Positions 3,338 through 30,290 of a stretch of DNA of 36,197 nucleotides are shown piece after piece. Both the position numbers and the translations under genes were made by a program. The stretch spans positions 1 through 36,197 of the forward strand of contig CAYHVV010000001.1 of the NCBI GenBank assembly GCA_964360115.1. Direction: 5' to 3'. Source of the DNA: an uncultured Methanosarcinales archaeon (lineage in GTDB: Archaea > Nanobdellota > Nanobdellia > Woesearchaeales > GW2011-AR9). Every line of letters starts with the position of its first letter. Positions within the stretch are counted from its first letter, which is position 1. Below the pieces are notes generated by a model, which was not told the origin of the DNA, did no database searches, and saw only the letters and a list, made by a program, of their open reading frames with translations.

Positions 3338-3708
3338 TCTACTACCACTTTACCTTTCATTGAAGGATGTATACCACAATGATAATCATAAGTGCCGGGT
3401 GTATTAAAAACATGTACATACGTATTTCCCTTTGAAATAGAATCAGAATTGATTTCATCTCCGGTATCAGAAACAATAGTATGCGGCGCAGAGTCCCTAT
3501 TTGTCCAAACAACACTTACTCCTTTAGATATAGTTAAAGTATTTGGATTAAAAGCGAAACCGTTTATCTCGATATCCATCTTAATTCCCAGATCTCCAGT
3601 AGATGGAGCAGCAGTTGGTTGTACTGGTGTTTTTTGCGCATAACAGCCGCTAACCGCTATAACTATTATCAAAAATCCAATAATAAATGTTTTTTTAATG
3701 TTAATCAT
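3334..3708 (-). CDS. Blue-copper (cupredoxin) lipoprotein
   Basis: Lipobox signal MINIKKTFIIGFLIIVIAVSGC. Copper ligands are HTIV ... YDYHCGIHPSMKGKVVV (His, Cys-x2-His-x2-Met). A GGAG RBS lies directly upstream. Confidence 0.8.
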   Translation of the reverse strand: MINIKKTFIIGFLIIVIAVSGCYAQKTPVQPTAAPSTGDLGIKMDIEINGFAFNPNTLTISKGVSVVWTNRDSAPHTIVSDTGDEINSDSISKGNTYVHVFNTPGTYDYHCGIHPSMKGKVVVE

Positions 3709-5229: not shown

Positions 5230-6468
5230 ATGATGAGAGGTAAAACATCACTGGTGTTGTTAGTAATTCTATTATTTGTAATAAGTTGTGCTCCTCAAGA
5301 ACTTTCCGATGAAGAACTGGAAAAAAAGTTAAGCAATTTATCTGATCAAGAACTTCAAGAGATTGTTAATCAAGGAAATGAAAAGGGAGCAATTGCCGGC
5401 CAAGCTTATTACAACGTAAAGTATGGGGCTTCTAATCAAAAAGTCTATAATTCAGCGAAGAATATTATGAATAAAAAGATTCCTAAATCGGAAGTTCCTT
5501 TGCCAGAAAAAATAATTAATTCTCCACCAGTTTTAAACTTCATAGGCAACAAACAAATCCAGAAAGGGGATTTATTGACTTTTACAGTTAGTGCAACTGA
5601 CGCTAATAATGATCCCTTAGTTTACAGTGCCCAAGTATTGCCTCTTGGTGCTAGTTTTGATGTAACCCTTCAGACTTTTAACTGGATTCCAGCTTACAAT
5701 CAGGTCGGTATTAATCCGATTACGTTTAAAGTAAGTGATGGGAAAAAAGAGGATGAAGAAACAATTAACATTACCGTTTTGGATTCTGTTGTTTTAAATT
5801 CTTGTGTGCCTAAACCAAATGGTTTAGTCGGCTGGTGGGATGGAGATAATGTTAGCGGAACGACTGCCTATGATTTGGTTGGAACACACCATGGAACTTT
5901 AGCTAATGGAGCTAAAATAGGTAAAGGTATGGTGGGAAATGCTTTTGATTTTAGTGGTAATAACGGCTATGTTGGTGTTGCGCATCATACAGACTTTAAT
6001 ATAGATTATAGCTGGTTTATTGATGCTTGGATAATGCCTTTATCATACCCTGCTCCCGGAAAAAGAGGAGCCATATTGATGAAATGGGTTGATGGTGGAG
6101 AAAACAAGGCCTTGGAGATTGGTTCTGATGGAAAAGTGTTTGTTACACTTGTAAATGTGCAAAAACAATCTGCTCAAGTATATTCAACTACTAATCTATT
6201 AATGAATCGGTTTACTTTCGTAGCTGCAAGTTATAATGGAACAGCTTTAAACTTATATATTAATGGTCAGCTTGATAACAGTCTTCCTTTATCAATAGAT
6301 GTTTCAGACTCTTATGGAACTTTTTATATGGGAAATCATCCAACAAGAGGTTCAGAATTTGTTCCTTTTGATGGCTTGATTGACGAAGTTGAATGGAGTA
6401 AAGAAGTTCCAACAGAACAGAAAATACTGGAATTATTTTCTTCTACTAGTAAAGGGAAATGTAAATAA
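5230..6468 (+). CDS. Secreted lipoprotein: cadherin/Ig-like domain + LamG (concanavalin-like lectin) domain
   Basis: Lipobox LLFVISC. Ig-like module PPVLNFIGNKQIQKGDLLTFTVSATDANNDPLVYS. LamG pattern LVGWWDGDN...GNAFDFSGNNGYV...LYINGQLD...FDGLIDEVEW. Confidence 0.7.
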   Translation: MMRGKTSLVLLVILLFVISCAPQELSDEELEKKLSNLSDQELQEIVNQGNEKGAIAGQAYYNVKYGASNQKVYNSAKNIMNKKIPKSEVPLPEKIINSPPVLNFIGNKQIQKGDLLTFTVSATDANNDPLVYSAQVLPLGASFDVTLQTFNWIPAYNQVGINPITFKVSDGKKEDEETINITVLDSVVLNSCVPKPNGLVGWWDGDNVSGTTAYDLVGTHHGTLANGAKIGKGMVGNAFDFSGNNGYVGVAHHTDFNIDYSWFIDAWIMPLSYPAPGKRGAILMKWVDGGENKALEIGSDGKVFVTLVNVQKQSAQVYSTTNLLMNRFTFVAASYNGTALNLYINGQLDNSLPLSIDVSDSYGTFYMGNHPTRGSEFVPFDGLIDEVEWSKEVPTEQKILELFSSTSKGKCK

Positions 6469-13640: not shown

Positions 13641-13708
13641 GATTTTCTTTAAAATTTAAGTTCATTTTACGCAAATCTTTATATAGGTAGATTTCTTCAT
13701 TCAGATTG

Positions 13709-15133
13709 ATGTCAAAAAGAGGACAAGTAACGATTTTTATAATCATAGGTTTGCTAATCCTAATTATAACTGCAGGAATAATTTATGTTTCTAATACCAC
13801 AGTTACGGAAGAGCTTAAGATTGAAGAAACTAGCCCGTTTAAGGCAGACTTTTTTGTTTCTTTTGTAGACAACTGTTTAGAAAAAAGTGTCATTGATGGG
13901 ATGTACTTAGTTTTTTCACAGGGAGGTTATTATGAATTTACTCCGGAACCTGAACTGTTTGATCAGGTAGATGAACAAATAATTTCATTTCCCCCTAGTT
14001 TAGGAATTAATGTTTTTGCAGTAGAAGGTGAGAAAGAAGTAGAAAGTGAAAAAGAGGCTTTGCAAGTTCCAGTGTATTTCCAAAATACTAAAGCTAATCT
14101 GCCTGCCATTACTAGCATAGAAAGAGAAGTAGGAAAAGCTTCAAGAAGTTTTTTTCTTTCCTGCATAAATGGTTTTGAAAGTTTTAAAAAAGAAAATTAT
14201 AATATAGATGCCGGCAGCCCTGAGATTAAAGTTGCTTTTGCTGAAAAAATGTTAGTAGAGTTAAATTACCCCTTAAAAATAACTGGCGGCAGTAAAATCG
14301 CTGAACTTGAAACCTTTTCTACCGCCATTAACTTTAATTTTAAAGATAAATATGAAGTGATTAAAGAATATTTAAAAAAACAGGAAGAAGAACCAAATTA
14401 TTTTTTAATGGGTGAACTCTCTTCTTATGCTTATGAAAAAGATTTTGGTTTCGGATTTAAGCAGTTTGGCGATTCCGGAGCAGAAGTGTTAGTTGATTTT
14501 TCTTATGATGAAGAATTAAAACCGGAACCTCTGATTTACAGTTTCATTCTTTATTTTAATTGGACTGAACCAGTAGAGGAAGCCGAGTTATCTGGAGAAG
14601 AAGATGCAATCATCAATTTGGAAAGTATCCCTGCCTGGAACATCGATCAACCGGGCATTCATACTTACCAAGTGAAAGCTCTGGGAGAAGGTCTTACTTT
14701 CCATACTGATCCAAGAAGTCTGTCCATCGATCCTAAAACTGGACTAGTGACGATAGACACGAATGAATTCCCCAACGATGAATATTTATATTATGTTTTA
14801 GTTAGTGACCAATACGGACACGAAACTGTCGGGCCGATGTTCGTTAATGTAAATGTTAATGGCGGAACTTTGCCGATTATCAAGAAGATAGCCAAGCAGA
14901 CAGCAAAAATAGGAGAAGAATTTAATTATAAAATCGAAGTATTAAATGCCGGAAAAAACGTCGAGAATATTTTATCGTTCACTACTGATTCCTACTTGTT
15001 CGACCTGGATAAAAAAACGGGAGAGATCAAATTTATTCCTCAGCCAGAAGATAAAGGTCTTCATTCTGTCCGGGTAGATGTAGAGAACGAATTCGGGAAG
15101 ACTTGGCAGAGATGGGAATTGGAAATAAAATGA
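13709..15133 (+). CDS. Pilin-like (class III signal peptide) surface protein with C-terminal Ig-like domains, paralog of 17758-18774
   Basis: MSKRGQ|VTIFIIIGLLILIITAGIIYV has a short basic n-region, Gly-Gln, then a 20-aa hydrophobic stretch. The first 24 nt from the ATG are identical to those of 17758. Shared core FVDNCLEKSVIDGMYLVFSQGGYY. C-terminal Ig-like module LPIIKKIAKQTAKIGEEFNYKIEV. I prefer the ATG at 13709 over the track's TTG at 13706. Confidence 0.7.
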   Translation: MSKRGQVTIFIIIGLLILIITAGIIYVSNTTVTEELKIEETSPFKADFFVSFVDNCLEKSVIDGMYLVFSQGGYYEFTPEPELFDQVDEQIISFPPSLGINVFAVEGEKEVESEKEALQVPVYFQNTKANLPAITSIEREVGKASRSFFLSCINGFESFKKENYNIDAGSPEIKVAFAEKMLVELNYPLKITGGSKIAELETFSTAINFNFKDKYEVIKEYLKKQEEEPNYFLMGELSSYAYEKDFGFGFKQFGDSGAEVLVDFSYDEELKPEPLIYSFILYFNWTEPVEEAELSGEEDAIINLESIPAWNIDQPGIHTYQVKALGEGLTFHTDPRSLSIDPKTGLVTIDTNEFPNDEYLYYVLVSDQYGHETVGPMFVNVNVNGGTLPIIKKIAKQTAKIGEEFNYKIEVLNAGKNVENILSFTTDSYLFDLDKKTGEIKFIPQPEDKGLHSVRVDVENEFGKTWQRWELEIK

Positions 15134-17487
15134 TCAGCAGACAAAATAAACAAAATATTGGCACTAAAGATACCAAGATAAATTATTTTGTGTCTCTAAT
15201 GGTCTTGGTCTTAATGTGCACCTTTATTATTCTAGGTGTCTCCGCAGAAGATAATATCAATAATATTGATTGGAATAATCCGGAACAATTCAATGCTAAT
15301 TTTGAAAATGATCCCGTAGCTGCATTTTCTAACAATCCTGAAATGGTCTGGAACAAAATAGAAAATAATCCTCTCCTGCTTGCAGATAATGAACAAGTCA
15401 TGATCGCGGCATTCAACAATAATCAGGATAGGTTCTGGAGTCTTGTAAGTGTAAAAGGCAGCGATGTAATGAAAAACCAACCATTATGGGATTTCGCATT
15501 TAAGCAGGACCGGTTAAAAGCTGCAGGGGTAATAGAGAATAATCCGCACATCTTAGATGACTCTGTCCTTCTAGAAAAATTTGACTTAGAAATTTCTTCT
15601 CAGGAACTAAGAAACGGCAAAACCGGAGTAGAGATTATCAATGAAAATCCTAAAGCAAAGAAAACCTGGCTTGAAAAAAAATATGACTTGTTTACGGAAG
15701 ATATCATTGAAACAGGGGGAAAAATCAAGAACGCTGACATTCTCAAATACGATGGAAATAAAATCACTACCGGCGGCGCTGGCGGAGGAAAATTTACAGT
15801 TAAGGATGTCAAAGGAGCGAAAATCTTAACGGACGGTTCTTTGGAATTCAAAAATGCGGTAATCAAAGCTACCAAAAGTTTTTCTTTAAAAACAGATGAA
15901 TACGGAAATGATTATTATGGGATGGAAGCCGGAGAAGTTTATCTGGATGAGACGGTTAAGACATTCTCGTTAAAAATAAAAGATGGAAAAGTGTTCTCTT
16001 CAGGAAAAGGCTTGATAACTTATGATTGTTCTGATTGCGCTTTTGAAAAAGGGACAAGAATGGGCCAGTTTATCAAGTCAGAAGAGACTGGAGATCTGAT
16101 TACCGGTAAGTTTAAGCGCATAGGTCACTATCAGTTAGATTATACTTATCAAGCTGCAGTTGCCATGGAAGTAGATGGCGGAATATTTCAACAAGACGGT
16201 TCTAATCCGGAAGAGATGATCATTCTCGGAAAAACTAAATTGGTTAAGAAAGAAATAATTTTCGGCGATCCAAATAAAAATTATAAAACAACCCTGCCTG
16301 GAGACGGAACGATTATTAATATCGAAGGACCTAATACTGTTTATTATACCGAAAAAAAGAGCCGTGATGCTGCAACATTTTGTCCGAAAGATTTTGCTTG
16401 CATAGTTAATGTTCCCGGCCAGGAATACGGGGGAGCGTATCAGGAAAGATTAGCTTTCTTAAACGTGCAGGAAAATGATAAGATTTCTGTGAAAACTCCG
16501 GTTTATTATAATCGGGTTGAAGTTCTTGACCAAGTAGGCGGAGAAGTTACTTTTGCTTCCGTTAATAAAAGAAGCGGAACGGTCTTAGGAGAAATAAAAT
16601 CTGTTGCCGGAGAGAAACCAAAATTGGTTCGAGGCAGGCTGGAAGAAATAAAATCCGGAAGGTTTGATGTATTGGATAGTACGGATCCATATGAACCGCC
16701 GTTACTGCATCATTGGTCATCAAAAAAATTCCAGAAAGATCAGATTTATTTTATGAATAAGCGGGATCATTTTGCAACCTGCACTTACGGTGTTGATTGT
16801 GAAGAAGTGTTTGCAAAGGAATTCGGAAAAGTAATCGTACCAAAAGACAGAACTAAAAAGATTTCAACGACCATAATCGTTTCCGGCGATAACGCTAACA
16901 CTCCCTTAAGCATGTTAAGTTACTGCCAAAAAGAAGGGTGTTACATCGTCAACAGCAGAGATTCACCGCCGACAACTAAAAGCAGCAAGCTGGTTGTAAC
17001 CGGGCATCATAATGCCGGTTCTGATTATGTCTGGAGAGATCCTCCTGAAGTATTTAAAAAACATAACCCTATAGATAAACTTTACTTCAGCCCGGTTGAA
17101 GGAGGTTCACCTTTCGATTCGCTTCCTACGTCCAGCGCGGATGCGCAAAATCCGGTTGATTACGTTGCGTTCAGCGCCTGCAACACCGCAAACTCTTTTG
17201 ATTCACCAGATTTCGGGATTCTTCAGAAAAAATATCCTGACTTAAAAATCGTCCAGGGATGGAAAAATAAAGCGCCATTGCATGAAGCTATAAGTGATCT
17301 GCCTACAGGTATAGAAGAGATGGAAAAGCTGGCTCAGGGAAGCATAGTTAAAAACAAATACGGGGACAAAATAGGCGGTGAAAAATCTTGGTACATCAAA
17401 CAGGCCGATGGGACTTGGAAATGGACTAATGGCCGGGTAAATCCTCAACCCTTGGGTTCATCAAGTGAATTTTATGAAAATGTTTAG
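15130..17487 (+). CDS. Large secreted protein (785 aa): N-terminal region related to the giant protein, C-terminal caspase-fold-like module
   Basis: The ATG at 15130 overlaps the upstream TGA (ATGA), the same junction as at 18771. Signal peptide FVSLMVLVLMCTFIILGVSA|ED. The track's 15103 start would add 9 aa upstream of it. Confidence 0.7.
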   Translation: MISRQNKQNIGTKDTKINYFVSLMVLVLMCTFIILGVSAEDNINNIDWNNPEQFNANFENDPVAAFSNNPEMVWNKIENNPLLLADNEQVMIAAFNNNQDRFWSLVSVKGSDVMKNQPLWDFAFKQDRLKAAGVIENNPHILDDSVLLEKFDLEISSQELRNGKTGVEIINENPKAKKTWLEKKYDLFTEDIIETGGKIKNADILKYDGNKITTGGAGGGKFTVKDVKGAKILTDGSLEFKNAVIKATKSFSLKTDEYGNDYYGMEAGEVYLDETVKTFSLKIKDGKVFSSGKGLITYDCSDCAFEKGTRMGQFIKSEETGDLITGKFKRIGHYQLDYTYQAAVAMEVDGGIFQQDGSNPEEMIILGKTKLVKKEIIFGDPNKNYKTTLPGDGTIINIEGPNTVYYTEKKSRDAATFCPKDFACIVNVPGQEYGGAYQERLAFLNVQENDKISVKTPVYYNRVEVLDQVGGEVTFASVNKRSGTVLGEIKSVAGEKPKLVRGRLEEIKSGRFDVLDSTDPYEPPLLHHWSSKKFQKDQIYFMNKRDHFATCTYGVDCEEVFAKEFGKVIVPKDRTKKISTTIIVSGDNANTPLSMLSYCQKEGCYIVNSRDSPPTTKSSKLVVTGHHNAGSDYVWRDPPEVFKKHNPIDKLYFSPVEGGSPFDSLPTSSADAQNPVDYVAFSACNTANSFDSPDFGILQKKYPDLKIVQGWKNKAPLHEAISDLPTGIEEMEKLAQGSIVKNKYGDKIGGEKSWYIKQADGTWKWTNGRVNPQPLGSSSEFYENV
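16850..17300 (+). other. Candidate clan-CD (caspase/CHAT/CPD-like) cysteine protease module
   Basis: KLVVTGHHNAG (His codons at 17005-17010) is followed 58 residues later by DYVAFSACNTAN (Cys codon at 17179-17181). The His-then-Cys order, hydrophobic strands before each residue and small residues after each match the caspase-hemoglobinase fold pattern. Confidence 0.4.
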
Positions 17488-17757: not shown

Positions 17758-18774
17758 ATGTCAAAAAGAGGACAAGTAACAATCTTTTTAGTAGTGGGTA
17801 TAGTCATTTTACTCTTAGCAGCGTTGTTCTTTTACCTCTTCGGCCAGATGAAAGAAGCGCCGTTGCAAGTGGAAGCAAAGGAAACCGGAGAAGCGCCCAG
17901 TACGCGAGGAGCTTTACAAATATATGTTGAAAATTGTATCGAAAAAACCATTGATCCAGCAACATATTTACTAGCACTGCAGGGCGGGATAATTTATCCG
18001 GATGAAAGTAACAAAATTCTGCTAACTGATTATGGCGTTGTTAATTATGCCTGGTTGAATGGTGCGCAAGGAATTTCCCGCGCTAAAATGGAAGAAGATC
18101 TTGCAGCATATTTGGAAGAATATATTCCTTCGTGTTTAGGTAATTTTGAAACATTTGTCACTCAAAACATTTTAGTTGAATCGGATTTTAATAATGTTCA
18201 AGCAAAGATTTCTATTAAGGAAAATACCATCAATGCAAACTTAGATCTGCCGCTTAAAGTAAATCTAGCTGATGGAGATAAATTGGAATTAGATCATTTT
18301 TCAGCAATGGTGCGTAGCAGCTTAGGTAAAATGCTTACTTCTATTGAAAAATTAAAGTTTCCAATTATAACCCCTTCCGATTTGGTTAACCTTCCGTACC
18401 AATCAACGATATTCCCCTTTGATGAAGCAGTTACCATTTACTCACTAACTGAAGAGAATCAAGAAACTCCGTTATCATTTATGTTTGCAGTTCGTAATGA
18501 TCTTCCCGAGAATAAAGCTCCTTCATTGCATTATATTGCTGACAAGACTTTTCGCGTAGGAGACGTATGGAAAGAAGTATTGACTGCAGAAGACCCTACC
18601 AATGACTTGTTAGAATTTTCTTCTGATTCCAGTTTATTTCCCATTCAAAAAGATGGAACCATTGACGTACAGATAACTCAAGCAGGAGAATTTGAAGTTA
18701 CTTTTAGCGTTAATGATCATCAGGCCGGGGAAGATGAACAACTAGTTACAGTTACAGTGGTGAATAAAGAATGA
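17758..18774 (+). CDS. Pilin-like (class III signal peptide) surface protein, paralog of 13709-15133
   Basis: MSKRGQ|VTIFLVVGIVILLLAALFFYL. Shared core YVENCIEKTIDPATYLLALQGGIIY. C-terminal Ig-like module APSLHYIADKTFRVGDVWKEVLTAEDPTNDLLEFSSDS. Confidence 0.7.
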   Translation: MSKRGQVTIFLVVGIVILLLAALFFYLFGQMKEAPLQVEAKETGEAPSTRGALQIYVENCIEKTIDPATYLLALQGGIIYPDESNKILLTDYGVVNYAWLNGAQGISRAKMEEDLAAYLEEYIPSCLGNFETFVTQNILVESDFNNVQAKISIKENTINANLDLPLKVNLADGDKLELDHFSAMVRSSLGKMLTSIEKLKFPIITPSDLVNLPYQSTIFPFDEAVTIYSLTEENQETPLSFMFAVRNDLPENKAPSLHYIADKTFRVGDVWKEVLTAEDPTNDLLEFSSDSSLFPIQKDGTIDVQITQAGEFEVTFSVNDHQAGEDEQLVTVTVVNKE

Positions 18775-21700
18775 AACCAGTAACTAGAAAAACTATTGTT
18801 ATGGGGTGTGTTTTTCTCTTCCTAGCGAGTCTTTTTGCTGTTGCCCAGGAGTTTCCAGAAACGAATAACCCGCAGGGGCAATCTCCTTATGATCAATTTT
18901 CCAGCAATCCGAATTTATGGACCACGGATAATTTCAATAAGCTCAGTCCAGCAGATCAAGGACAATTTTTAGCAACTAATTACCGCGCAGATTTGGCGCT
19001 GGAATATTACAAAAATCAAAATAACGTCGGCTTGAATAAGATAGTAGATTTAAAATATTTTGCGGATAAAAATAACTTAGGGAAAAATCCAGCTGCTGAT
19101 GATAAATTTTATTCGAGCACTTATACCACTGCAACGCTGACGAGCTTGCGTGATTTCCTGCAGACAGGACTGGAACAGAAAGAGGCTGCTGCACAATATT
19201 TCACTCAAAAGTTCAATACTCCTTATACCTTTGAAGAAGTAGATGAAGATTTTCAATATGATGCTCAAGCAGGAACATTGACCAATGGTAAGAAAACTAT
19301 CAGTTTAAGTGAGTTCAAAGGTGATTCAGCTATCCAAGGGATTATTTCTATCGCAGACGGGTTTAAAATTATCCGGAAAGAAGAACAAGAAACACAGGAA
19401 ATTTCCGTGCAGGGTGATGGAGAGAGAAAAATTCAATATGATGCCCAGAAAGGAAATTTATTATTCAGAGACACACAGGGAAAAGAACAAAGCTTTGATA
19501 TCACTGCTGCAGAACCAGTTCATCTCGATTTTTATCAGGATGGAACTTTAGAGATAGAAGGGCCTGTTTCGGGAACAGTTAATCTTGATAACGAACATAA
19601 GTTCGCAGAATTCAGAAACAGACAGGGAAAATTAGTTATCTATTTCAACGGCGACTTTGAATCAAGAGATGCATTAATAAAAACAGCAAAACTCTACCTC
19701 AATGGACGATTTGAATATAATAAAGAAAAAAACAAAGTAGATGCTTACGATGTGATGAGCAATGATAGAAAAACTATCATTGTTGACAAAGATTCACGCG
19801 TAGGTGCAAAGACACAGGGACAGATTAAAGGAAAAAGTACTTTAGAGATATATCTTTCTAAAGTTTCCGAACACTCAGAATATTTTGTCAAACCTGGTGC
19901 AGCTGAAGAACAGCCGACCGTACAAGAAGTCATTGACAACTTACAGAAGGTTAGACCACCACAAGGAGACGTTGGAAATAACGCAGAAGTATTCATCAGG
20001 AAAAATGCTGAAACTGGAAAAACAATTATTACTTCAAAAGGAAAAGTAGAGATTGGTTTTTATGATGTTGTGAGCGGAAGCATTTCGCGTTCTGAAACTG
20101 AGCCGCACTTTATAGGTGTAAACGGAATTTCTGAGTTTGATTATTTAGGTGCGCCACAGAAACAAATAAACATTCGAGGAAAAGCAGTGTACTCGGATGA
20201 ACAGTACAGCCAGATTGATACACAACAAAATGGCGCTTCTCTCAAGATAATAAAGAATGATTTTGATGATGTTATCCATTCAGGATGTTTTGATTGTGAA
20301 ACTGGATCAACTGCGCTAAGCATAGGCAAACAAGTTGCGACGGCATTACAACAAGGAGATACGTTTACTGAACCTCAGTTTAAAACAATTAGCATCTCTG
20401 CAACAGTTAAAGATAAAGGCCTCGAATATGATTGGGATACGTTTCTTAACAATATGGGTTCTCTTGCAGGCTCAAAAACAGAGGGACAACAAATAATTTT
20501 AGGAAAAAATTTACTATTGAAAAGTATAACCTGTGAAGGTACAAAACAGTGTGATTTCATGCTGGCCAGAGATCAGCAATCAGGAGTAACTTCTGCTTTT
20601 TATGAAGTATACGACCCAGAGACAAATAAAGCAGGTAGAAGAGTTACTATTCCAACTAATATCGGTGAAACCATGGGTAAAGTGACCCTACTCACTTCTA
20701 CTGAGAATTTACAAAAACTACAACAGATTCAAACCTTAATTGAACAACGAAGATATGGGGAAGTTTCAAATTTATTAAAAAATGAACCGTTTGAAGAAGA
20801 TCCTGCTTTGCGCCAGCATCTTCTGAAAACTACGGGAATTGATCTACAACAATTAAATAATCCAGAATACACTCAAAAGCTCAATGAGATAAATAATTAT
20901 TATTCTGATGCACACACAAAAATAAAGACATTACGGGATAGTTATGGAATTAATCTAGATGAAAAAGGTGTGCCTGTATCGACAGAAGATCAGCAAAAAC
21001 TGAACGAAATCTTAAACAAAAAACGCAGTGGGAATGAAATAGCCGCATTTGACTTATACAGCGGAGCAAGAGTTGATTTAGCCCGAGCAGAGAATGAGCA
21101 AGTAGAAGCAATGCATCAATCCTGCGCTGGAAATGCGTATTGCCCCGTAGGAGATGAAGATGTCAAAGCCGCTCAGCAGAAAGTAATTAATGAAGTTCTA
21201 AGAAGAGAAAAATCTCCAGAGGGAATCCAATGGCGGCAAAACTTCGAACTGCAGAAGGAACAAAAAGAACAGCAGAAAGAAGTAGAACTATTAGCCGATA
21301 AATTAGCTGATGCTCAGAAATTAGGTAAAAAAAGAGATGCTACTGAACGTACCTTGACACGTGATCAAGCAGTTCTTGCTAAAACTATTCAAGATCTAAA
21401 TGAGCAGGAAGCAAAAGTACTGAGACTTGAACAAGAACGGAAAGAGAAGGAAAAAAGTATTCAGTTCAGAGATGTTTTGAATGTTGTATTTACGCTAGGC
21501 GAAGGAATTGAACAAGATTTAGATTTGCAGAGAAGTGCTGAAGAATTAGCAAAGAAAGAACTTACCACGCTGGAACTACAGGAATTTAGTTTACAAACTA
21601 GGATTAAAAACGGAAAGGAAGGCCTTAAAAAAATAAATGAAGATATCAACGATCTCACTCTCAATTTCAAAGAACCCACCTCTAAATTAGCATTATTAAG

Positions 21701-24700
21701 CGCCTCTGGCGATGATGAAACCGTCGGCATGATGATACATAATTCTGACTTGCCTTCGGCTAAGAAGGATGAATTATACCAAACTTACCTTGGTTCTGAT
21801 GTAAGCAAGCGCCTTAAAGAAATTAGCGCGGATCAGTCTGTTTCGAATTATGACGAAAAACAAAAACAAATGCTTGACATTATCGGCACCGGAAAAATGA
21901 CACTTAAACGAGCGCAAAATTATGCTGAGCAATACGGTGATATCGGCGGATCAAAAGTAGTTTTAGATCATGTTAAAGCTACTAGACCTGATTTGGTTGA
22001 TACACCAGAATGGAGAACGGCGCAAAATGCTTATGATGCGGCAGTCGATAACCAAATAGCAGAGTTACGACAGGTTGCAGAACAAAATCTTCGGGAAAAA
22101 ATGAAACTCAGTGATGGAACAGAGTCCAGCATTTTTGGTGATAAAAATTCTATTGCTGATTGGACTTTATCTAAGTTGGGTGCCGCGGCTGAAAGCGTGG
22201 GTTCAGGAATACGTTCTGCGAGTTTTAATGCTGTTGCCGGAACACTCGCAGTCGCGGGAGGAGCTTCTTATTTAGTCGGCGCGGAAGAAACAGGAACCAA
22301 TTTATTAGATACAGCGACGGCATTGCATACTTTTGATGATGTGAAGAAGCAGCAAGCAAATGCAGAATTAAGATTACTGGATCAGCAAATAAAATCCTAC
22401 GACAAAGTGCAGGAAATAATTGCAAATGCTCGTCTAAGTGGGAAAGAACCAGATACTGCACTTATCCAGAATGCATTTAGAACCCAAGCACCAATTACTA
22501 ATTTAGCAAAACAAATGGAAGGAAAGGAATTAACGGTAGATGACCAAGCGCAAGCAGCATTGTATAATGTTGAACAATCCGCATTGGTTGCTGGCGGAGA
22601 TGAATTAGTAAAGAATCAATATATCGCCATTCGAGAAGAGTTTGCTGGTAAAAGCGAGGTTGCAGATATAGCAAAAGAAAGAGTACTTAAAGCGGAACAA
22701 CGTGCAGAAGGTTCCTTCTTAACTAACGAACAACTTGGCCTTTATGGAGATGCGTTGATTGATGTTTCTGTTGATGTAACAAATATCATTCCCGGGGTTG
22801 TTTTTGTCAAAGCCGGCAAAGCAGTTGCAAAGTTTGCTGAAGTTACTAAGATTGCTGGAGCTGCCTCTAAAATAGGTCATGCGATAGATGTTGTTAAAGA
22901 TGCAGGTAAATTATTAACTGTATCAAAAGATGCGCGATTGGCTTTGAAAGCAGCAAAGGCAGAATTGTATGCGGCGCAAGTAACTAAAGGGTTAACTGCT
23001 GTAGAAAGAACTGCAGAGATTGCTCGAGCAGAACAGAAAATAAACTTGGCTAGGCAAGCTGTTGAAGGAGAATATCGTGCCAGTAAGGTTGGTCGAGTAA
23101 CAAATGTATTATCTACGCCTGTCTCTTCTGATCTTAGAGCCATAGAAAAATTAAAGTTGGCGACTCAAGATGAACAGTTCAAAGCGGCGCAACAGTTACA
23201 GGCCGCCAGAACAGCAGAAGAAGTGCAAACCGCTCAGGAGGCATATAAAGTTGCTACACAAAGAGTCAGTGATATTGAAAAAACAAAAGAAGCATATTCT
23301 TTAGCGGGTTCATATACAGGTGGTGTAACTTGGTTAGGAAAAGAACGCGCCGTTGGTCCTGGTGCAAAGAAAGCACAACAAGCTCTTGATGAATTTCAGC
23401 AAGCCAGAGAAGCGTATCATGTAGAAAAGATTGCTTTTGGCGCAGATAAAGTATCAGCTGAAACTGTCGAGAATATTATCAAGACTGCAAAAGCAGCAGA
23501 AGAGGCATCATTTGAGAACAGGCTTTCCAATACCATTAAGGGCGCAATCGGTGCGCAGCGAGTTGAAAGAAATGTAGAAAAACTCAAAGCAGCTAAAGTT
23601 GGACTTTCATTTACTGATGATGGTAAACTTGTTGCAGAAGGGTTACAAACCGGCTCTGAAGAAGCCAAATTGGTTGAACAAACTAATAAATTGCTGGATG
23701 AAGATACGGTCATGCGGCATCTTGTTGGCGAAGATGCTAAACGTATCGCAACTCCAGAAGATATCCCGCAACCGCCGCGGAAATTATCCGAACAAGAATT
23801 TGATGAGTTAGATTTACTTGACAAAGAACTTGAAGCGCGAGGAGCTACCTATCATCTTAATGATCAAGACCAAGTAGAGATAAGTATTAATGATGTTGTA
23901 ACTGAAAATGTTGAAGATTTAGAATTATTAAAACAAAAAGCGCAGAGAGCACAACAATTATTTGATGAGGCCGATAAGGAAGATTTGATCAGGCAAACAC
24001 GAGCAAGGATAAATGCAGAAAATGTACTTTCTGATAATGATTTACAGGATGTTGCTGCTCAAGTAAAGAAAGATCTAACTGCTAAAACAAAAGGAGAAGT
24101 TGACGCTGCAGTTATCCCAGAAGTTGCTGGTGAAAAAGCTGCAGAACTGCCTAAACCTCTTGCTGCTAGAGAAACTAGAATAGCAACAGGTGATGATATC
24201 CCGAGACCGGAAGCGATTGAAGAAGCAATTGATTCCAGAACAGCAGGAACCTATTCCATACTCAAGACAGTTCAGCAAGAAGGAAAAGCGCCAACAGTTC
24301 GCGGGTTAGACCATCTCCCAGCGGATATAACTGCAGAAGAAAACGCTCAGCGAGTCTTGGCAAGTGTACCTGAATCAGGCACTACTGTGAGATTAGAAAC
24401 TCTCAATGGTAATATCGAAGAAGGCAAAGTTCTTGCAGCAAATGATAATGGCATAGTCTTAGAGCAAGCAGGAAGACAAAAAACTATTCCCGCTGATAAA
24501 GTAGATACAGTCACGGTTACTGAAAAAGCACCGATAGAAAAGCAAGGAGTTTCTGATGTGGTCGAACCCTGCACTCTCGCTGCCGCTGCGATATACGGAT
24601 TGGCTCCCTGTAATCCTAGTGAAGCTACTAAACTGCCTGCAGAAATTTCCGGCGAGAGAGAAATTGCAGAAAAAGCACCTTCCGTTTCTGAAGAAGAGCA

Positions 24701-27700
24701 ATTTGTACCCGAAGTATCCACCGTCGTAGAAAGACCAGCAAATCTGCGAAGTGAAGGAGCAACTGTCGTTCAACTTCCTGGACGTTCTATAGCAGCAGAG
24801 TCTGTTGAAGTTCCAGCTCAATTAGATATAACTCCTGCCACTATAGATGATATAGACATAATTGTTAATGATCAGATACCACGTACAAAATTAGCTGAGA
24901 GTGAAGCAGCAGCCCTGACTGCAAATAGAGAATATTTTATCGGTCGGGGTGGAGAAGCAATAGTAATAACTGATCCAGAAAATCCAAATTTTGTATATAA
25001 AATAAAACACACCACTAGTCCTGAAGTTGCAGAAACAGCAAATTCTTTCCCTGATGCTAGAACATATTTAGATGCTCTTGGTGAGCATGGCGCAAAAGTA
25101 GATTGGGCAAATACTAATACTATGCGCATCGAGAATTTAAAAGCTTCTGGACACCAACAATTAGGAGACGCGATATTTAACAGCTTGTCACCGGAACAAA
25201 GAGCATTGTATGTAGCGGATGGAACTACTGCTGCGCAAAGACGGATTTTACGAGAACAAGCATTTAGACAAATGACTGAGGAAGAATTTCAAGCGTTTAA
25301 TCAGGCCTTTGATGAGTTTGCTGAAACAGCAACCAAACAGGGAATAAAAATTGGCGATACAGGAATAGATAATATTTGGGTAGGACCGGAAGGATTTACC
25401 GACGGAGTAAAGTTTAAAATTTCTGATGCTGGGGTTGCTCATCAAGTTACTGATCGCAATGCTCTGCGGCAATTTTATCAGCGCAGGAAAGCAGAATTAA
25501 TATCTGGTGACTCTGGCTATTTAGTCACGGGCGAAGATGCGATAGATCTGTATGAAGCTCGCGGATTAATCACTAAAGAAGAAGTGATTAAACTACGTAA
25601 TGAATTACCTGTTCCGGAAACGTTGCTTAAAGAAGTTGAAGAGATAGAATTGCCTTCTTGTTCTATCGGCGGTTCTTTTGTCGGACAAGCTGCAGCAGCG
25701 CCTTGTTTGCCAACTGGCGCGCCAAAAACAATAGATGATTTAGTTGAAGGAGAAAAATTCAGAGTGCGTTCAAAAAGCGGCAATTCCTATGCCGGCAGTT
25801 ATCTTCATACTGAAGGGGGTTTATTAAATTTCGAAACTGGAGAGGAGACAAAAAGATTCTTTGGATTACTGGGCACTAAAAAAGAAACAGGCACGTTGCG
25901 TGTTGAGCTGTTAGATCAAAGCAGTATTATCCGAGAAGGCGATCAAATAAGGATAACTTCCAATAGCGGTATTCCTTACGTCGGCAGATATGCCGGTGAA
26001 GATGCAGAATTCTTCCGGATTAAGTATCCAAATGGAGACACTCTGCGTTTTAAAAAATCTGACTTTAATCTGGATACTATCATCGGAGAAGGAGACGCAG
26101 TCACGCTCAGGAGCAAAAGCGGCAATAGTTATTCCGGACAGTATGTTTCGGAAGCTGACGGATACATCGTTCTCAGAGACGAAAGTGGAAATGCTTTCCG
26201 CTTGAGAAGCGAGATGGTGGATAAAACTTCCATCAAGACACTTGGAATGGAAGAACAATCCATCAAAAATAAAAATAAAGCTTTATTTGCAGATAAGGAA
26301 GAATTTCCTTCACGCCAAAGTAAAGATGTACATGCAAAAGATTTACCTTTTGAAAATGAACCTGCCCCGCGTAGAGTAATATATTCTCTTGAAGACAGGA
26401 TAATAGCAGAAGAACAAGGCCTTATTTTTGAAAATGTACCCTCTTCTAAACTTCCGCCAGGAACCTACACTTATGTTATATTAGAAGACGGGTCAATGGT
26501 GTTTGGAAAAGTAAGCAGTAATTTGGAATTTGGAGTTAAGCATGTCCATCTGGCTAACGGAAGGCCGGTCAAAGTTGCCGGAGAAGTAGCAATTGACGGA
26601 ACTGGAAAATATGTGTTTAATTTACGCAGCGGAACTTTTACTTACCCCCTACTTGACAGTAAATTTGAAAAGTTTAAACATCTGGGAAATGTGAAGGCAC
26701 GGGAAGAAGTTGCTAAATTTGAAAGAACACTGCAAAGAAATATGGACGAGTCTTTCAGTAATTATTTTGGCAGGAAAGGAGAGTTCACAAAAGATCCGGT
26801 TTTACCTAATCAGCCCTCACCGCTGGAAGAATTAGTAAACATTTGCGTAAGAGGCGCAGAGCTTAATATTCTCTCCTGCCAAGCTCCAGATATAAAAGTT
26901 TTAGTTGAGCAGAGAAGAGCAGCGATGGTTTCAGATGCAGTCAATCCTTGCAACATTGCTGCTGCTGCGATTCAGGGATTAGCTCCTTGTGTAACTAGTA
27001 CGGCTGAAATAATGCCTGAGGAACCTGCATTCGTAATTGAAACATCTGGTGTTGTAGAAAGGCCAGTAGAACTTCGTAATGAATTGCCTCTAACCGAAGA
27101 GGTAGTTCCTTCTTCAGAAAAGATTATTTCTGAATGGAGAATGAAAGCAAGAGAAGCACTTAATTCTCAAACGCCAATTGAAATCGGTGAAACTAAAGTT
27201 GTTTTTACTAGAACAGTTGATGACGAAGTTGAAAAGATTGAAGGAGTTCTAACCGCGAAGTATGATGCTAATAATTATTTTTCAATGCAGATAGTCGATT
27301 CTGAAACAGGAGATATTGTTGCTACTCACTACTACCATGTTCGTGGAAAAGAAATTTCAATATTAGAAACGAAGGTTAATCCTAACTATCAAGGAGCAGG
27401 AATGAATCAACAGATGTTCCAGTATATGTCTGATTTACATCCAGAAGCGGAAGTTATGGATACGCTAGTAGCCGGAACTAATTTAGAGGTGTATAAAGCA
27501 TCATTGCAGAAGGGATTAAGTCCTCTTGATGCAATAAAACAAACTCCTGCTTACAAAATAAGAAAAAATGCCGGTTGGGGAGAAATTGATCTTAAACAGT
27601 CAGTACTGCCCAAGTTAGAAGAACTCGAAGAAAGATCGCTTACTTTGATTTCTAAGAGGGAAAATCCGACGGGTGTTCTTCCTCCAGAATTTAAACGCAA

Positions 27701-30290: not shown

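Follow-up and report, generated by a model that had tools for sequence, protein, structure and literature searches.

Cysteine-bracketed loops in a giant secreted protein

The DNA analysed here, a 36,197-nt stretch of contig CAYHVV010000001.1 deposited as from an uncultured Methanosarcinales archaeon (hereafter the window), carries a giant open reading frame (ORF) preceded by a pilin-like partner gene (Table 1). Its predicted product contains five short Ala/Gly-rich loops, each bracketed by two cysteines, and we show that each of these loops forms the core of a junction cassette, ~22 residues long, in a lineage-specific family of giant secreted proteins of Nanoarchaeota-type DPANN archaea. The loops had been noticed in an earlier sequence-only reading of this DNA, which placed them exactly at module boundaries and proposed two roles for them, either as recognition or processing sites of a polyprotein or as membrane-inserting loops recalling those of viral fusion proteins.

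Translation of the ORF (18771-30290) confirmed the five loops at the places reported, the starts given earlier falling on the D of D-[VA]-V-x-P-C in copies 1, 3 and 4 and two to three codons before S-C-S in the two variants. The Cys-to-Cys distances of loops 1 to 5 were 13, 15, 13, 13 and 16 residues, and the gaps between successive loops were 363, 430, 329 and 562 residues, in agreement with the claimed spacing of cysteines (13-16) and of copies (330-560). The claim that the loops are too short for a transmembrane helix also held; over all copies collected (see below) the inter-Cys segments had 11-15 residues (20 in one relative) with D, E or P in the flanks, short of the ~18 or more hydrophobic residues of such a helix. 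The loops are composed of A, G, I, L, V and Y, with R and K absent from the five in the window and from 22 canonical copies, and loop 5 contains a glycine-zipper-like GAIIGGAIAG. When the residues of the protein were shuffled 5,000 times, a mean of 0.0064 and a maximum of one qualifying loop per shuffle were obtained, as compared with the five observed. Composition and sequence likewise bore out the acidic, Pro-rich linker described after copies 1, 3 and 4 and its VVERP-x-x-LR element after copies 1 and 3: the 40 amino acids (aa) that follow copies 1, 3 and 4 have 7-12% P and 23-25% D+E (3.8% and 15.9% in the whole protein), and VVERPANLR and VVERPVELR follow copies 1 and 3, respectively. Synonymous codons differ among the five DNA copies, so conservation acts on the peptide and not on the DNA; loops 3 and 4 have a 17-nt identical stretch in common.

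Occurrence and consensus of the motif

A word-indexed protein search returned only two relatives, P0001 and P0002, both bearing the same kind of Cys-bracketed loop. With residues 1901-3099, a HMMER search of 1.84 billion representative sequences gave 226 matches, many of them to single modules, and among these were about ten further giants of 2,800-5,700 aa. DNA collections were scanned with the degenerate pattern C-x-[LIV]-[AT]-[AG]-[AG]-A-[IV]-x-G-L-A-x-C. The 185,579-species GTDB genome collection contained 13 matching stretches, seven on contigs of low guanine-cytosine (GC) content and six in high-GC bacteria; all seven low-GC stretches had the full flanking motif and were labelled Nanoarchaeota, Nanoarchaeia or (probably wrongly) Methanosarcinales, and the high-GC bacterial matches were isolated, without flanks, i.e., chance matches. 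Metagenomes gave 12 stretches (seven low-GC family members and five high-GC chance matches), and viral contigs scanned with the same pattern gave none. A profile search with the junction alignment against 5.8 billion sequences found nothing at E<=10 and missed even the known relative P0001, which we treat as the limit of a short (20-residue) and compositionally biased profile and not as evidence of absence. Altogether the motif recurs in about 41 unique loops in about 19 proteins or fragments from low-GC Nanoarchaeota-type metagenome-assembled genomes (MAGs) and metagenomes. Several MAGs of the family are labelled "uncultured Methanosarcinales archaeon" (L003/L006, CAYJQD010000003.1; L001, CAYRMP010000030.1; L002, CAYIHK010000024.1); with a GC content of ~0.40, they match Nanoarchaeota-labelled contigs in synteny and encode proteins 50-86% identical to those of these contigs, and the Methanosarcinales label is probably wrong.

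An alignment of 38 junctions had the two cysteines as its sole invariant columns, with the G and A of A-I-x-G-x-A at least 90% conserved. The 22 unique C-x12-C copies follow the consensus V-S-D-[VA]-V-[EDN]-P-C-x-[VLI]-A-[AA or GG]-A-I-[Y/other]-G-L-A-P-C. Across the family the inner loop has 11-20 residues and each protein has three to six copies; judging from the sequences collected, the first place in each protein seems to be taken by a loop of the AAAA subtype, and loops of the GG subtype seem to be mainly internal. Both cysteines were kept in every copy examined, so the loss in homologues that would have refuted the earlier reading was not seen. Even the divergent members P0010, P0011, P0012, P0017 and P0018 retain them together with a Gly-rich core, in loops that hold R, K or D (e.g., CGTGVVGRAIGGC, CSFGGRAFDGGMDDPC and CKSAPGIIVGSAC). 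The sequence I-S-G-V-R-[IL]-K-x-P / VVERP, considered as a universal second element, was rejected as part of the general cassette because it follows only 11 of the 41 loops, mostly with one module type. The earlier remark that the motif belongs to no described family stood, with no Pfam, NCBIfam or PDB sequence match, and the Cys-bracketed junction motif is previously undescribed.

Architecture of the giant protein

Neither the whole giant protein nor its single modules had a Pfam or NCBIfam match above the family's own cut-off, and a sequence search of four modules against the PDB gave no match. Segments equivalent to its signal peptide were present in every full-length relative. The protein has 21 cysteines, ten of which flank the five loops; 20 of the 21 have a partner within 30 aa (5.7 expected from shuffles, maximum 16), the only unpaired one being that of the signal peptide, and in 12 family proteins 263 of 266 cysteines have a partner within 30 residues. 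Such close pairing, in a family whose full-length members all have signal peptides, is what one would expect of local disulfides after export, and disulfides are thus likely.

The constant N-terminal region consists of a beta-rich part, a long helical part and a small beta-barrel ~20 aa before junction 1, in this order, and the beta-rich part contains the conserved short Cys pairs C506/C509, C588/C594 and C785/C791. Identity with P0002 is 38% over residues 1-1019 and 26-27% onward to ~1986, and the high-scoring segment pairs (HSPs) of the giant protein with P0002 and P0007 stop at ~1986-1987, about 40 residues past loop 1. Regarding the modules that follow, the P0002 homologue of module 1 gave sub-threshold matches to YrbL, APH and Pkinase (E~1e-3), and homologues of module 3 gave weak Acetyltransf_CG matches. 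Module 2b, which has a Cys pair of its own (residues 2692/2703), is a widespread uncharacterised domain, since more than 100 of the 226 representative-library matches map to it, many in proteins of 160-900 aa outside the giant family, and no Pfam, PDB-sequence or convincing PDB-fold match was found. A second copy of the small beta domain precedes junction 5, and module 4 is found at differing positions in P0003, P0004, P0009 and P0017. By eye, the segment between module 4 and junction 5 (28900-29500, positive strand, residues ~3380-3580) contains a duplicated helical segment (SPEELKIALDAAGYKLT.../NIDELRRVLDSAGYETT...) and two copies of a small beta element, FEIAGK-YY...W-Q-R-FW-DK.

Two AlphaFold2 predictions were made. 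In the model of residues 2440-3100 (661 aa, 53-row alignment) the confident parts were the Sm/SH3-like barrel and the module 2b domain, with a predicted local distance difference test score (pLDDT) of 80-98, a second domain (66-89) and the small beta domain (~80). In Foldseek, the PDB matches of the second domain were GNAT acetyltransferases and those of the small barrel were Hfq/Sm proteins (E ~1e-2, probability 0.95-1.0), and a viral structure library returned only uncharacterised proteins and GNATs. Loop 3 lies at an order-to-disorder edge (pLDDT falling from 53 to 27) and loop 4 in a linker (22-35), both packed against nothing. The second prediction, of one 64-residue junction (junction 1) with the 38 junctions as alignment, had a mean pLDDT of 61.6 and a short helix over P-C-T-L-A-A-A-A-I as its sole element, with the loop at ~73 and flanks in coil. 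Since the models give a lone short helix with coil flanks, in or at the edge of low-confidence linkers, the motif does not lie buried in a known domain, a possibility that the sequence-only reading had left standing; as modelled, it seems to be a small unit of its own within a flexible linker. Neither a fusion-protein fold nor a pore-forming domain was matched in Pfam, NCBIfam, the PDB or by fold, the modelled parts being residues 2440-3100 and one junction.

Table 1 Features of the giant gene and its upstream partner in the window
Feature	Position	Strand	Remarks
Upstream partner gene	17758-18774	+	338 aa; type-IV-pilin-like N-terminus MSKRGQVTIF...; stop overlaps the giant start by 4 nt (ATGA, 18771-18774)
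Giant ORF	18771-30290	+	3,839 aa; member of an unannotated giant secreted-protein family of Nanoarchaeota-type MAGs
N-terminal signal peptide or anchor	18771-18848	+	MKPVTRKTIVMGCVFLFLASLFAVA, followed by QE; most hydrophobic segment of the protein; cleavage site by eye
Constant N-terminal region	18849-24548	+	Residues 27-1926; from homology to P0002 and alignment of 11 relatives
Junction 1	24549-24611	+	VSDVVEP-CTLAAAAIYGLAPC; AAAA subtype; constant/variable border; loop residues 1934-1947, nt 24570-24611
Module 1	24828-25640	+	Tentatively protein-kinase-like (GRGGEAIV G-rich loop, YKIK, D-x4-N, SDAG); motifs by eye
Junction 2	25647-25712	+	Variant, ELPS-CSIGGSFVGQAAAAPC-LP; loop residues 2297-2312, nt 25659-25706
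Module 2a	25707-26246	+	Repeated small SH3/Sm-like beta-barrel (GxxFRVRSKSGNSYxGxY); last repeat pLDDT 78-92; Hfq/Sm-fold matches
Module 2b	26268-26927	+	Widespread domain, LEFGVKHxHLANGRPVxxAGE; residues ~2500-2719; pLDDT 88-98
Junction 3	26928-26990	+	VSDAVNP-CNIAAAAIQGLAPC; loop residues 2727-2740, nt 26949-26990
Module 3	27114-27647	+	GNAT-like acetyltransferase fold; Foldseek matches to GNATs, probability 0.95-1.0, E~1e-2
Small beta domain	27708-27785	+	GKKYYRAADGNWKQQRSFWFDK; accompanies the next junction; pLDDT ~80; HSPs begin at residues ~2968-2982
Junction 4	27915-27977	+	FSDVVDP-CVIAGGAIQGLAPC; GG subtype; loop residues 3056-3069, nt 27936-27977
Module 4	28068-28730	+	Tentatively kinase-like (GEGTVGIVYEA...AFKTAK); Pkinase E=0.068, below threshold
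Junction 5	29610-29678	+	Variant, KLES-CSLAAGAIIGGAIAGPC-LP; loop residues 3618-3634, nt 29622-29672; kept in P0001 and L003f
C-terminal module	29679-30287	+	~200 aa; common to P0001 and L003f

Loops and module boundaries

Among the eight full-length relatives tallied, the position of the first canonical loop ranges from residue 1,459 to residue 2,181, with none found earlier. Beyond this first loop the same modules occur in different order and position among relatives. Some HSPs span exactly from loop to loop (giant residues 2293-2746 with P0004 residues 2974-3455), and the long HSPs with P0001, L003f and P0004 start at giant residues 3050-3055, at junction 4. The relative L003f has, at its residues 120-133, a canonical GVSDVVDS-CAVAGGAIYGLAPC at the alignment position of the giant's loop 2 and, according to HSP coordinates, one and the same position appears to hold a canonical loop in one relative and a variant loop in another. 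A hybrid loop is found in P0001, its N-side corresponding to loop 3 of the giant and its C-side and linker to loop 4 of the giant. Among HSPs of at least 150 aa, 15 of 72 endpoints fell within 15 residues of a loop as compared with 8.4 expected (p=0.018).

Inter-module junction position and invariant cysteines are thus well supported features of the motif. Every loop is located between domains, and some domain borders are without a loop: breakpoints at residues ~2492-2505, ~2968-2982 and ~3313 are loop-free, so the loops are junctions but not the sole junctions. The earlier description of loops "exactly at module boundaries" therefore held as to their location between domains and the enrichment of endpoints, but was overstated. 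That interpretation as a whole was partly supported: the motif is undescribed, is not buried and keeps both cysteines, and "exactly" has to be given up.

Genomic neighbourhood

Homologues of the 338-aa partner lie directly upstream of the giant gene in every locus inspected (L001, L002, L017/L018 and L031). In the window, this gene and the ORF at 13706-15133 (positive strand) are paralogues, both with M(M)SKRGQVTIF and a hydrophobic helix, i.e., a type-IV-pilin-like (class III) signal, both with NC[IL]EK and SC[LI] Cys motifs, and both with weak Ig-like matches at the C-terminus. The gene for ribosomal protein L15e adjoins the locus in the window, L017 and L031. Downstream of the giant gene are a metallophosphoesterase gene and a 239-aa ORF, and the same genes follow it in several related loci; no immunity gene and no orphan cassette was found there. 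P0160, a protein identical to a neighbour of the giant protein encoded in the window, is recorded in a Hainich groundwater assembly, and close homologues are named Nanoarchaeota archaeon. Two relatives of the giant protein had a HopA1 Pfam match (PF17914), L017 10001-24196 (P0018) and L031 11715-18953; we take HopA1 to be a type III effector family of Pseudomonas syringae.

Between the two pilin-like genes there is a 794-aa ORF (15103-17487, positive strand) whose C-terminal LVVTGHHNAG and YVAFSACNTANS resemble, by eye, the His/Cys strands of clan CD (caspase/gingipain-like) proteases; homologues with 73-100% identity were found in close Nanoarchaeota relatives only, at the same position. Farther upstream, an ORF at 434-970 with helix-turn-helix and nucleotidyltransferase (NTP_transf_2/Polbeta) matches is adjacent to one at 973-1398 that is maybe HEPN-like by eye (both in the positive strand); if so, the two could be a minimal nucleotidyltransferase toxin-antitoxin pair. 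A similar pair of NTP_transf_2 and 150-aa genes sits between the 781-aa and 340-aa genes of L031 and L032. A further secreted protein, likely with a surface or adhesion role, is encoded at 5230-6468 (positive strand) and has matches to He_PIG/Big_9 Ig-like and Laminin_G_3 (LamG) domains.

Comparison with known systems

Nick loops closed by a disulfide are found in AB toxins, such as diphtheria toxin (C186-C201), cholera toxin A1/A2, Shiga toxin, Pseudomonas exotoxin A and the botulinum neurotoxins; the loop is nicked, and the fragments stay joined by the disulfide until it is reduced inside the target cell. The likeness is that an exposed loop between cysteines 12-25 residues apart borders the enzymatic cargo of a secreted protein: in the giant protein, which has a signal peptide, the cysteines are 13-16 apart, within the 10-25 looked for, and the loops lie between modules. 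The basic protease-sensitive site of AB toxins was not found, the five loops and the 22 canonical copies being free of R and K (see above). AB-toxin loops are protease sites of polar or basic character, present once in each toxin and not conserved in sequence across families, whereas those of the giant family occur three to six times per protein, are rich in Ala and Gly without basic residues and are strictly conserved, with a disulfide and a nicking that are predicted only.

Internal fusion loops of viruses (Ebola GP2 C511-C556, ASLV TM) resemble the motif in being Cys-bracketed, Ala/Gly-containing hydrophobic segments of a surface protein. They differ in having ~45 aa and aromatic-rich tips and in occurring once per protein inside a defined fusion-protein fold; the loops of the giant family have 11-20 aa, are poor in aromatics, have an interfacial energy of about zero and are repeated in disordered linkers. 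The aromatic tip and the favourable interface partitioning of fusion loops were both lacking (mean ~0 kcal/mol, 4.5% aromatics).

The pre-toxin motifs of polymorphic toxins (PT-VENN, PT-TG and DUF637) mark the border of the constant delivery part and the variable C-terminus and are a proposed processing site (Zhang et al. 2012, PMC3482391). Like them, the motif described here is a short conserved element at the border of a constant and a recombining variable part, in that the first loop ends the shared region and the modules beyond it are shuffled. Pre-toxin motifs occur once before a single toxin domain; the giant's motif, in contrast, is repeated between tandem modules and has an archaeal host, and the giant protein had no Pfam match to the described polymorphic-toxin domain models and no sequence likeness to them.

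MARTX toxins are proteins of 3,500-5,000 aa with conserved flanks and strain-variable effector modules exchanged by recombination and released in unstructured linkers (PMC6315884, PMC4453568). Release depends on the toxin's own cysteine protease domain, which cleaves after Leu residues, and the toxins have Gly-rich repeats and type I export (PMC6315884, PMC4453568). The giant protein is likewise a giant secreted protein whose module array differs among relatives and whose inter-module linkers are disordered. A variable effector array was found in the form of shuffled modules, a GNAT-like fold, HopA1 in relatives and weak kinase-like matches, their enzymatic activity being predicted. MARTX linkers are without a Cys-bracketed motif, and MARTX features (Peptidase C80, Gly-rich repeats) had no Pfam or NCBIfam match in the giant protein or in three relatives; nor did these searches detect a feature of type I export in the giant protein.

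Possible roles of the loops

We favour, tentatively and without calling it probable, the reading that the loops are a disulfide-stapled junction cassette which, in a multi-module secreted protein, would both offer a common handle for recognition or processing and act as a joint for recombination. Once the protein has been exported by Sec, a local disulfide would form between the two invariant cysteines, as seems to happen in all other Cys pairs of the protein, and would staple a short helix-turn with a small-residue face, [AG]-A-I-x-G (small-xxx-small), that would be displayed on a flexible acidic, Pro-rich tether. Because the cassette sequence is kept whatever modules flank it and is displayed on disordered tethers, it would most likely be read by one common partner, for which we favour a factor of processing or sorting that would nick or cut the chain there; the logic would be like that of pre-toxin motifs of polymorphic toxins (PMC3482391), MARTX inter-effector linkers and AB-toxin nick loops. 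The modules (GNAT-like, kinase-like and HopA1-like) would thereby come apart, perhaps remaining tied by the disulfide until it is reduced, as happens in AB toxins, and the repeated cassette would offer in-frame joints for the swapping of modules by recombination. The earlier proposal of processing or recognition sites fits the module-independent conservation, the disordered display and the first copy at the constant/variable border.

Several observations weigh against such a cassette. The loops are without a basic or otherwise classical protease site, the AlphaFold confidence for the loop is moderate (pLDDT ~45-73), and the enrichment of HSP endpoints at loops is only modest. No protease domain was found in the giant protein with Pfam, and an in-built protease in the N-terminal region was rejected, as His, Ser, Asp or Cys residues conserved as a catalytic set were not seen, apart from the Cys pairs, in the aligned first 900 residues of 11 relatives. 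The ORF at 15103-17487 as a protease relies on the TGHHNAG/FSACNTA dyad recognized by eye, to which Pfam and PDB sequence searches lent no support, and it is missing from the locus of the distant relative P0018. Finally, extracellular disulfide formation cannot be assumed in the anoxic groundwater and sediment habitats of many organisms of the family.

That neither a protease site nor a protease domain was found would agree with loops that are never cleaved and act as docking or packing elements, a reading we regard as possible but doubtful. The stapled small-xxx-small helix would pack on another helix, i.e., that of another junction, of another copy of the giant protein or of the co-transcribed pilin-like protein, so that the modules would be bundled or positioned on a fibre at the surface; another possibility is that the staple would simply shield adjacent modules from each other as they fold or when mechanical load is applied. 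In keeping with this, [AG]-A-[IV]-x-G is a GxxxG-type motif, of the kind known in helix-helix packing, the conservation is sequence-specific, a short helix is predicted, and each locus examined shows translational coupling of the giant gene with the pilin-like one. A 9-residue helix offers only a small interface, however, loops 3 and 4 were unpacked in the 661-aa model, and docking leaves unexplained both the exact site of the first copy at the constant/variable border and the conserved upstream VSDVVEP. The second earlier proposal, of disulfide-closed Ala/Gly loops that insert in the host membrane and jointly translocate the modules or fuse symbiont and host membranes, was weakened, and we consider it unlikely. 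It draws on a composition like that of internal fusion loops (e.g., GAAIGLAWIPYFGPAA of Ebola GP2), on the place of the loops among the most hydrophobic 13-mers of the protein after the signal peptide, on the secretion of the protein in a host-dependent DPANN lineage, and on the glycine zipper of loop 5. Nevertheless, the summed Wimley-White interfacial energy of 41 loops averaged ~0 kcal/mol (range -1.4 to +2.9), and aromatics, found only at a single variable position, accounted for 4.5% of the residues of the loops; five fusion peptides scored in the same way had 10-33% aromatics, three of the five at -3 to -5 kcal/mol. Divergent copies have R, K or D in the loop, 11-15 residues are too few to span a bilayer, and what is conserved is not hydrophobicity but the precise pattern [AG]-A-[IV]-x-G-x-A with the upstream acidic VSDVVEP; nor did Pfam, or Foldseek with the model of residues 2440-3100, detect a fusion-protein fold or a pore-forming domain. 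That an archaeal device for contact-dependent delivery or fusion uses the loops as membrane-inserting elements, several per chain, by which a DPANN symbiont would pass enzymatic modules to its host or open a cytoplasmic bridge, the cargo being released when the staples are reduced in the cytoplasm of the host, we hold to be improbable.

Two other readings were rejected. Internal lipobox-like sites for lipidation or signal peptidase, in which the Ala stretch and L-A-x-C would mimic an h-region and a lipobox and the modules would be lipid-anchored through the tether, were suggested by a chance match of the degenerate pattern to an apparent bacterial lipoprotein signal peptide (MTKKTLCILAAAAMLGFAGC), by the few copies that end in L-A-G-C, L-A-S-C or L-A-A-C (the first two in P0002) and by the disordered tethers after the second cysteine. 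This reading, to which we give very little credence, fails because the residue before the second cysteine is Pro in 14 of 22 canonical copies (elsewhere H, K, T, D or V), because the upstream flank is acidic (S-D-V-V-E-P), without a positively charged n-region, and because the sites are internal, ~2,000-3,600 residues into a Sec substrate; it also leaves the equal invariance of the first cysteine unexplained. Double-glycine leader and signal-peptidase A-x-A readings of the loop were dropped by eye, as neither the register nor the cellular topology fits. The least credible reading is that the loops have no function at the protein level and are a low-complexity coincidence or a translated DNA repeat (a recombination or regulatory site). 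The 17 identical nt of loops 3 and 4 and the hybrid loop of one relative would suit a DNA repeat, but the peptide is constant where synonymous sites differ and is kept between proteins only 25-40% identical elsewhere, and this conservation in distant relatives essentially refutes it; the shuffles (see above) speak against coincidence. We return to the stapled junction cassette, rating the motif as one of junctions or of processing in secreted proteins of modular, multi-domain build, which would act by the mechanism proposed above.

Significance

DPANN archaea depend on their hosts through physical contact, and to our knowledge almost no proteins that mediate this contact or a delivery are known. 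The proteins described here form a giant secreted family in which a conserved N-terminal region is combined with recombining enzyme-like modules and with a pilin-like partner whose gene is co-transcribed. The Cys-stapled junction provides a simple and sharply conserved handle to find and parse such proteins and to predict processing sites. Were the membrane-active reading true, it would be of considerably greater interest. Should processing take place at the junctions, the family would be an archaeal counterpart of the bacterial multi-effector toxins, with a different release logic.

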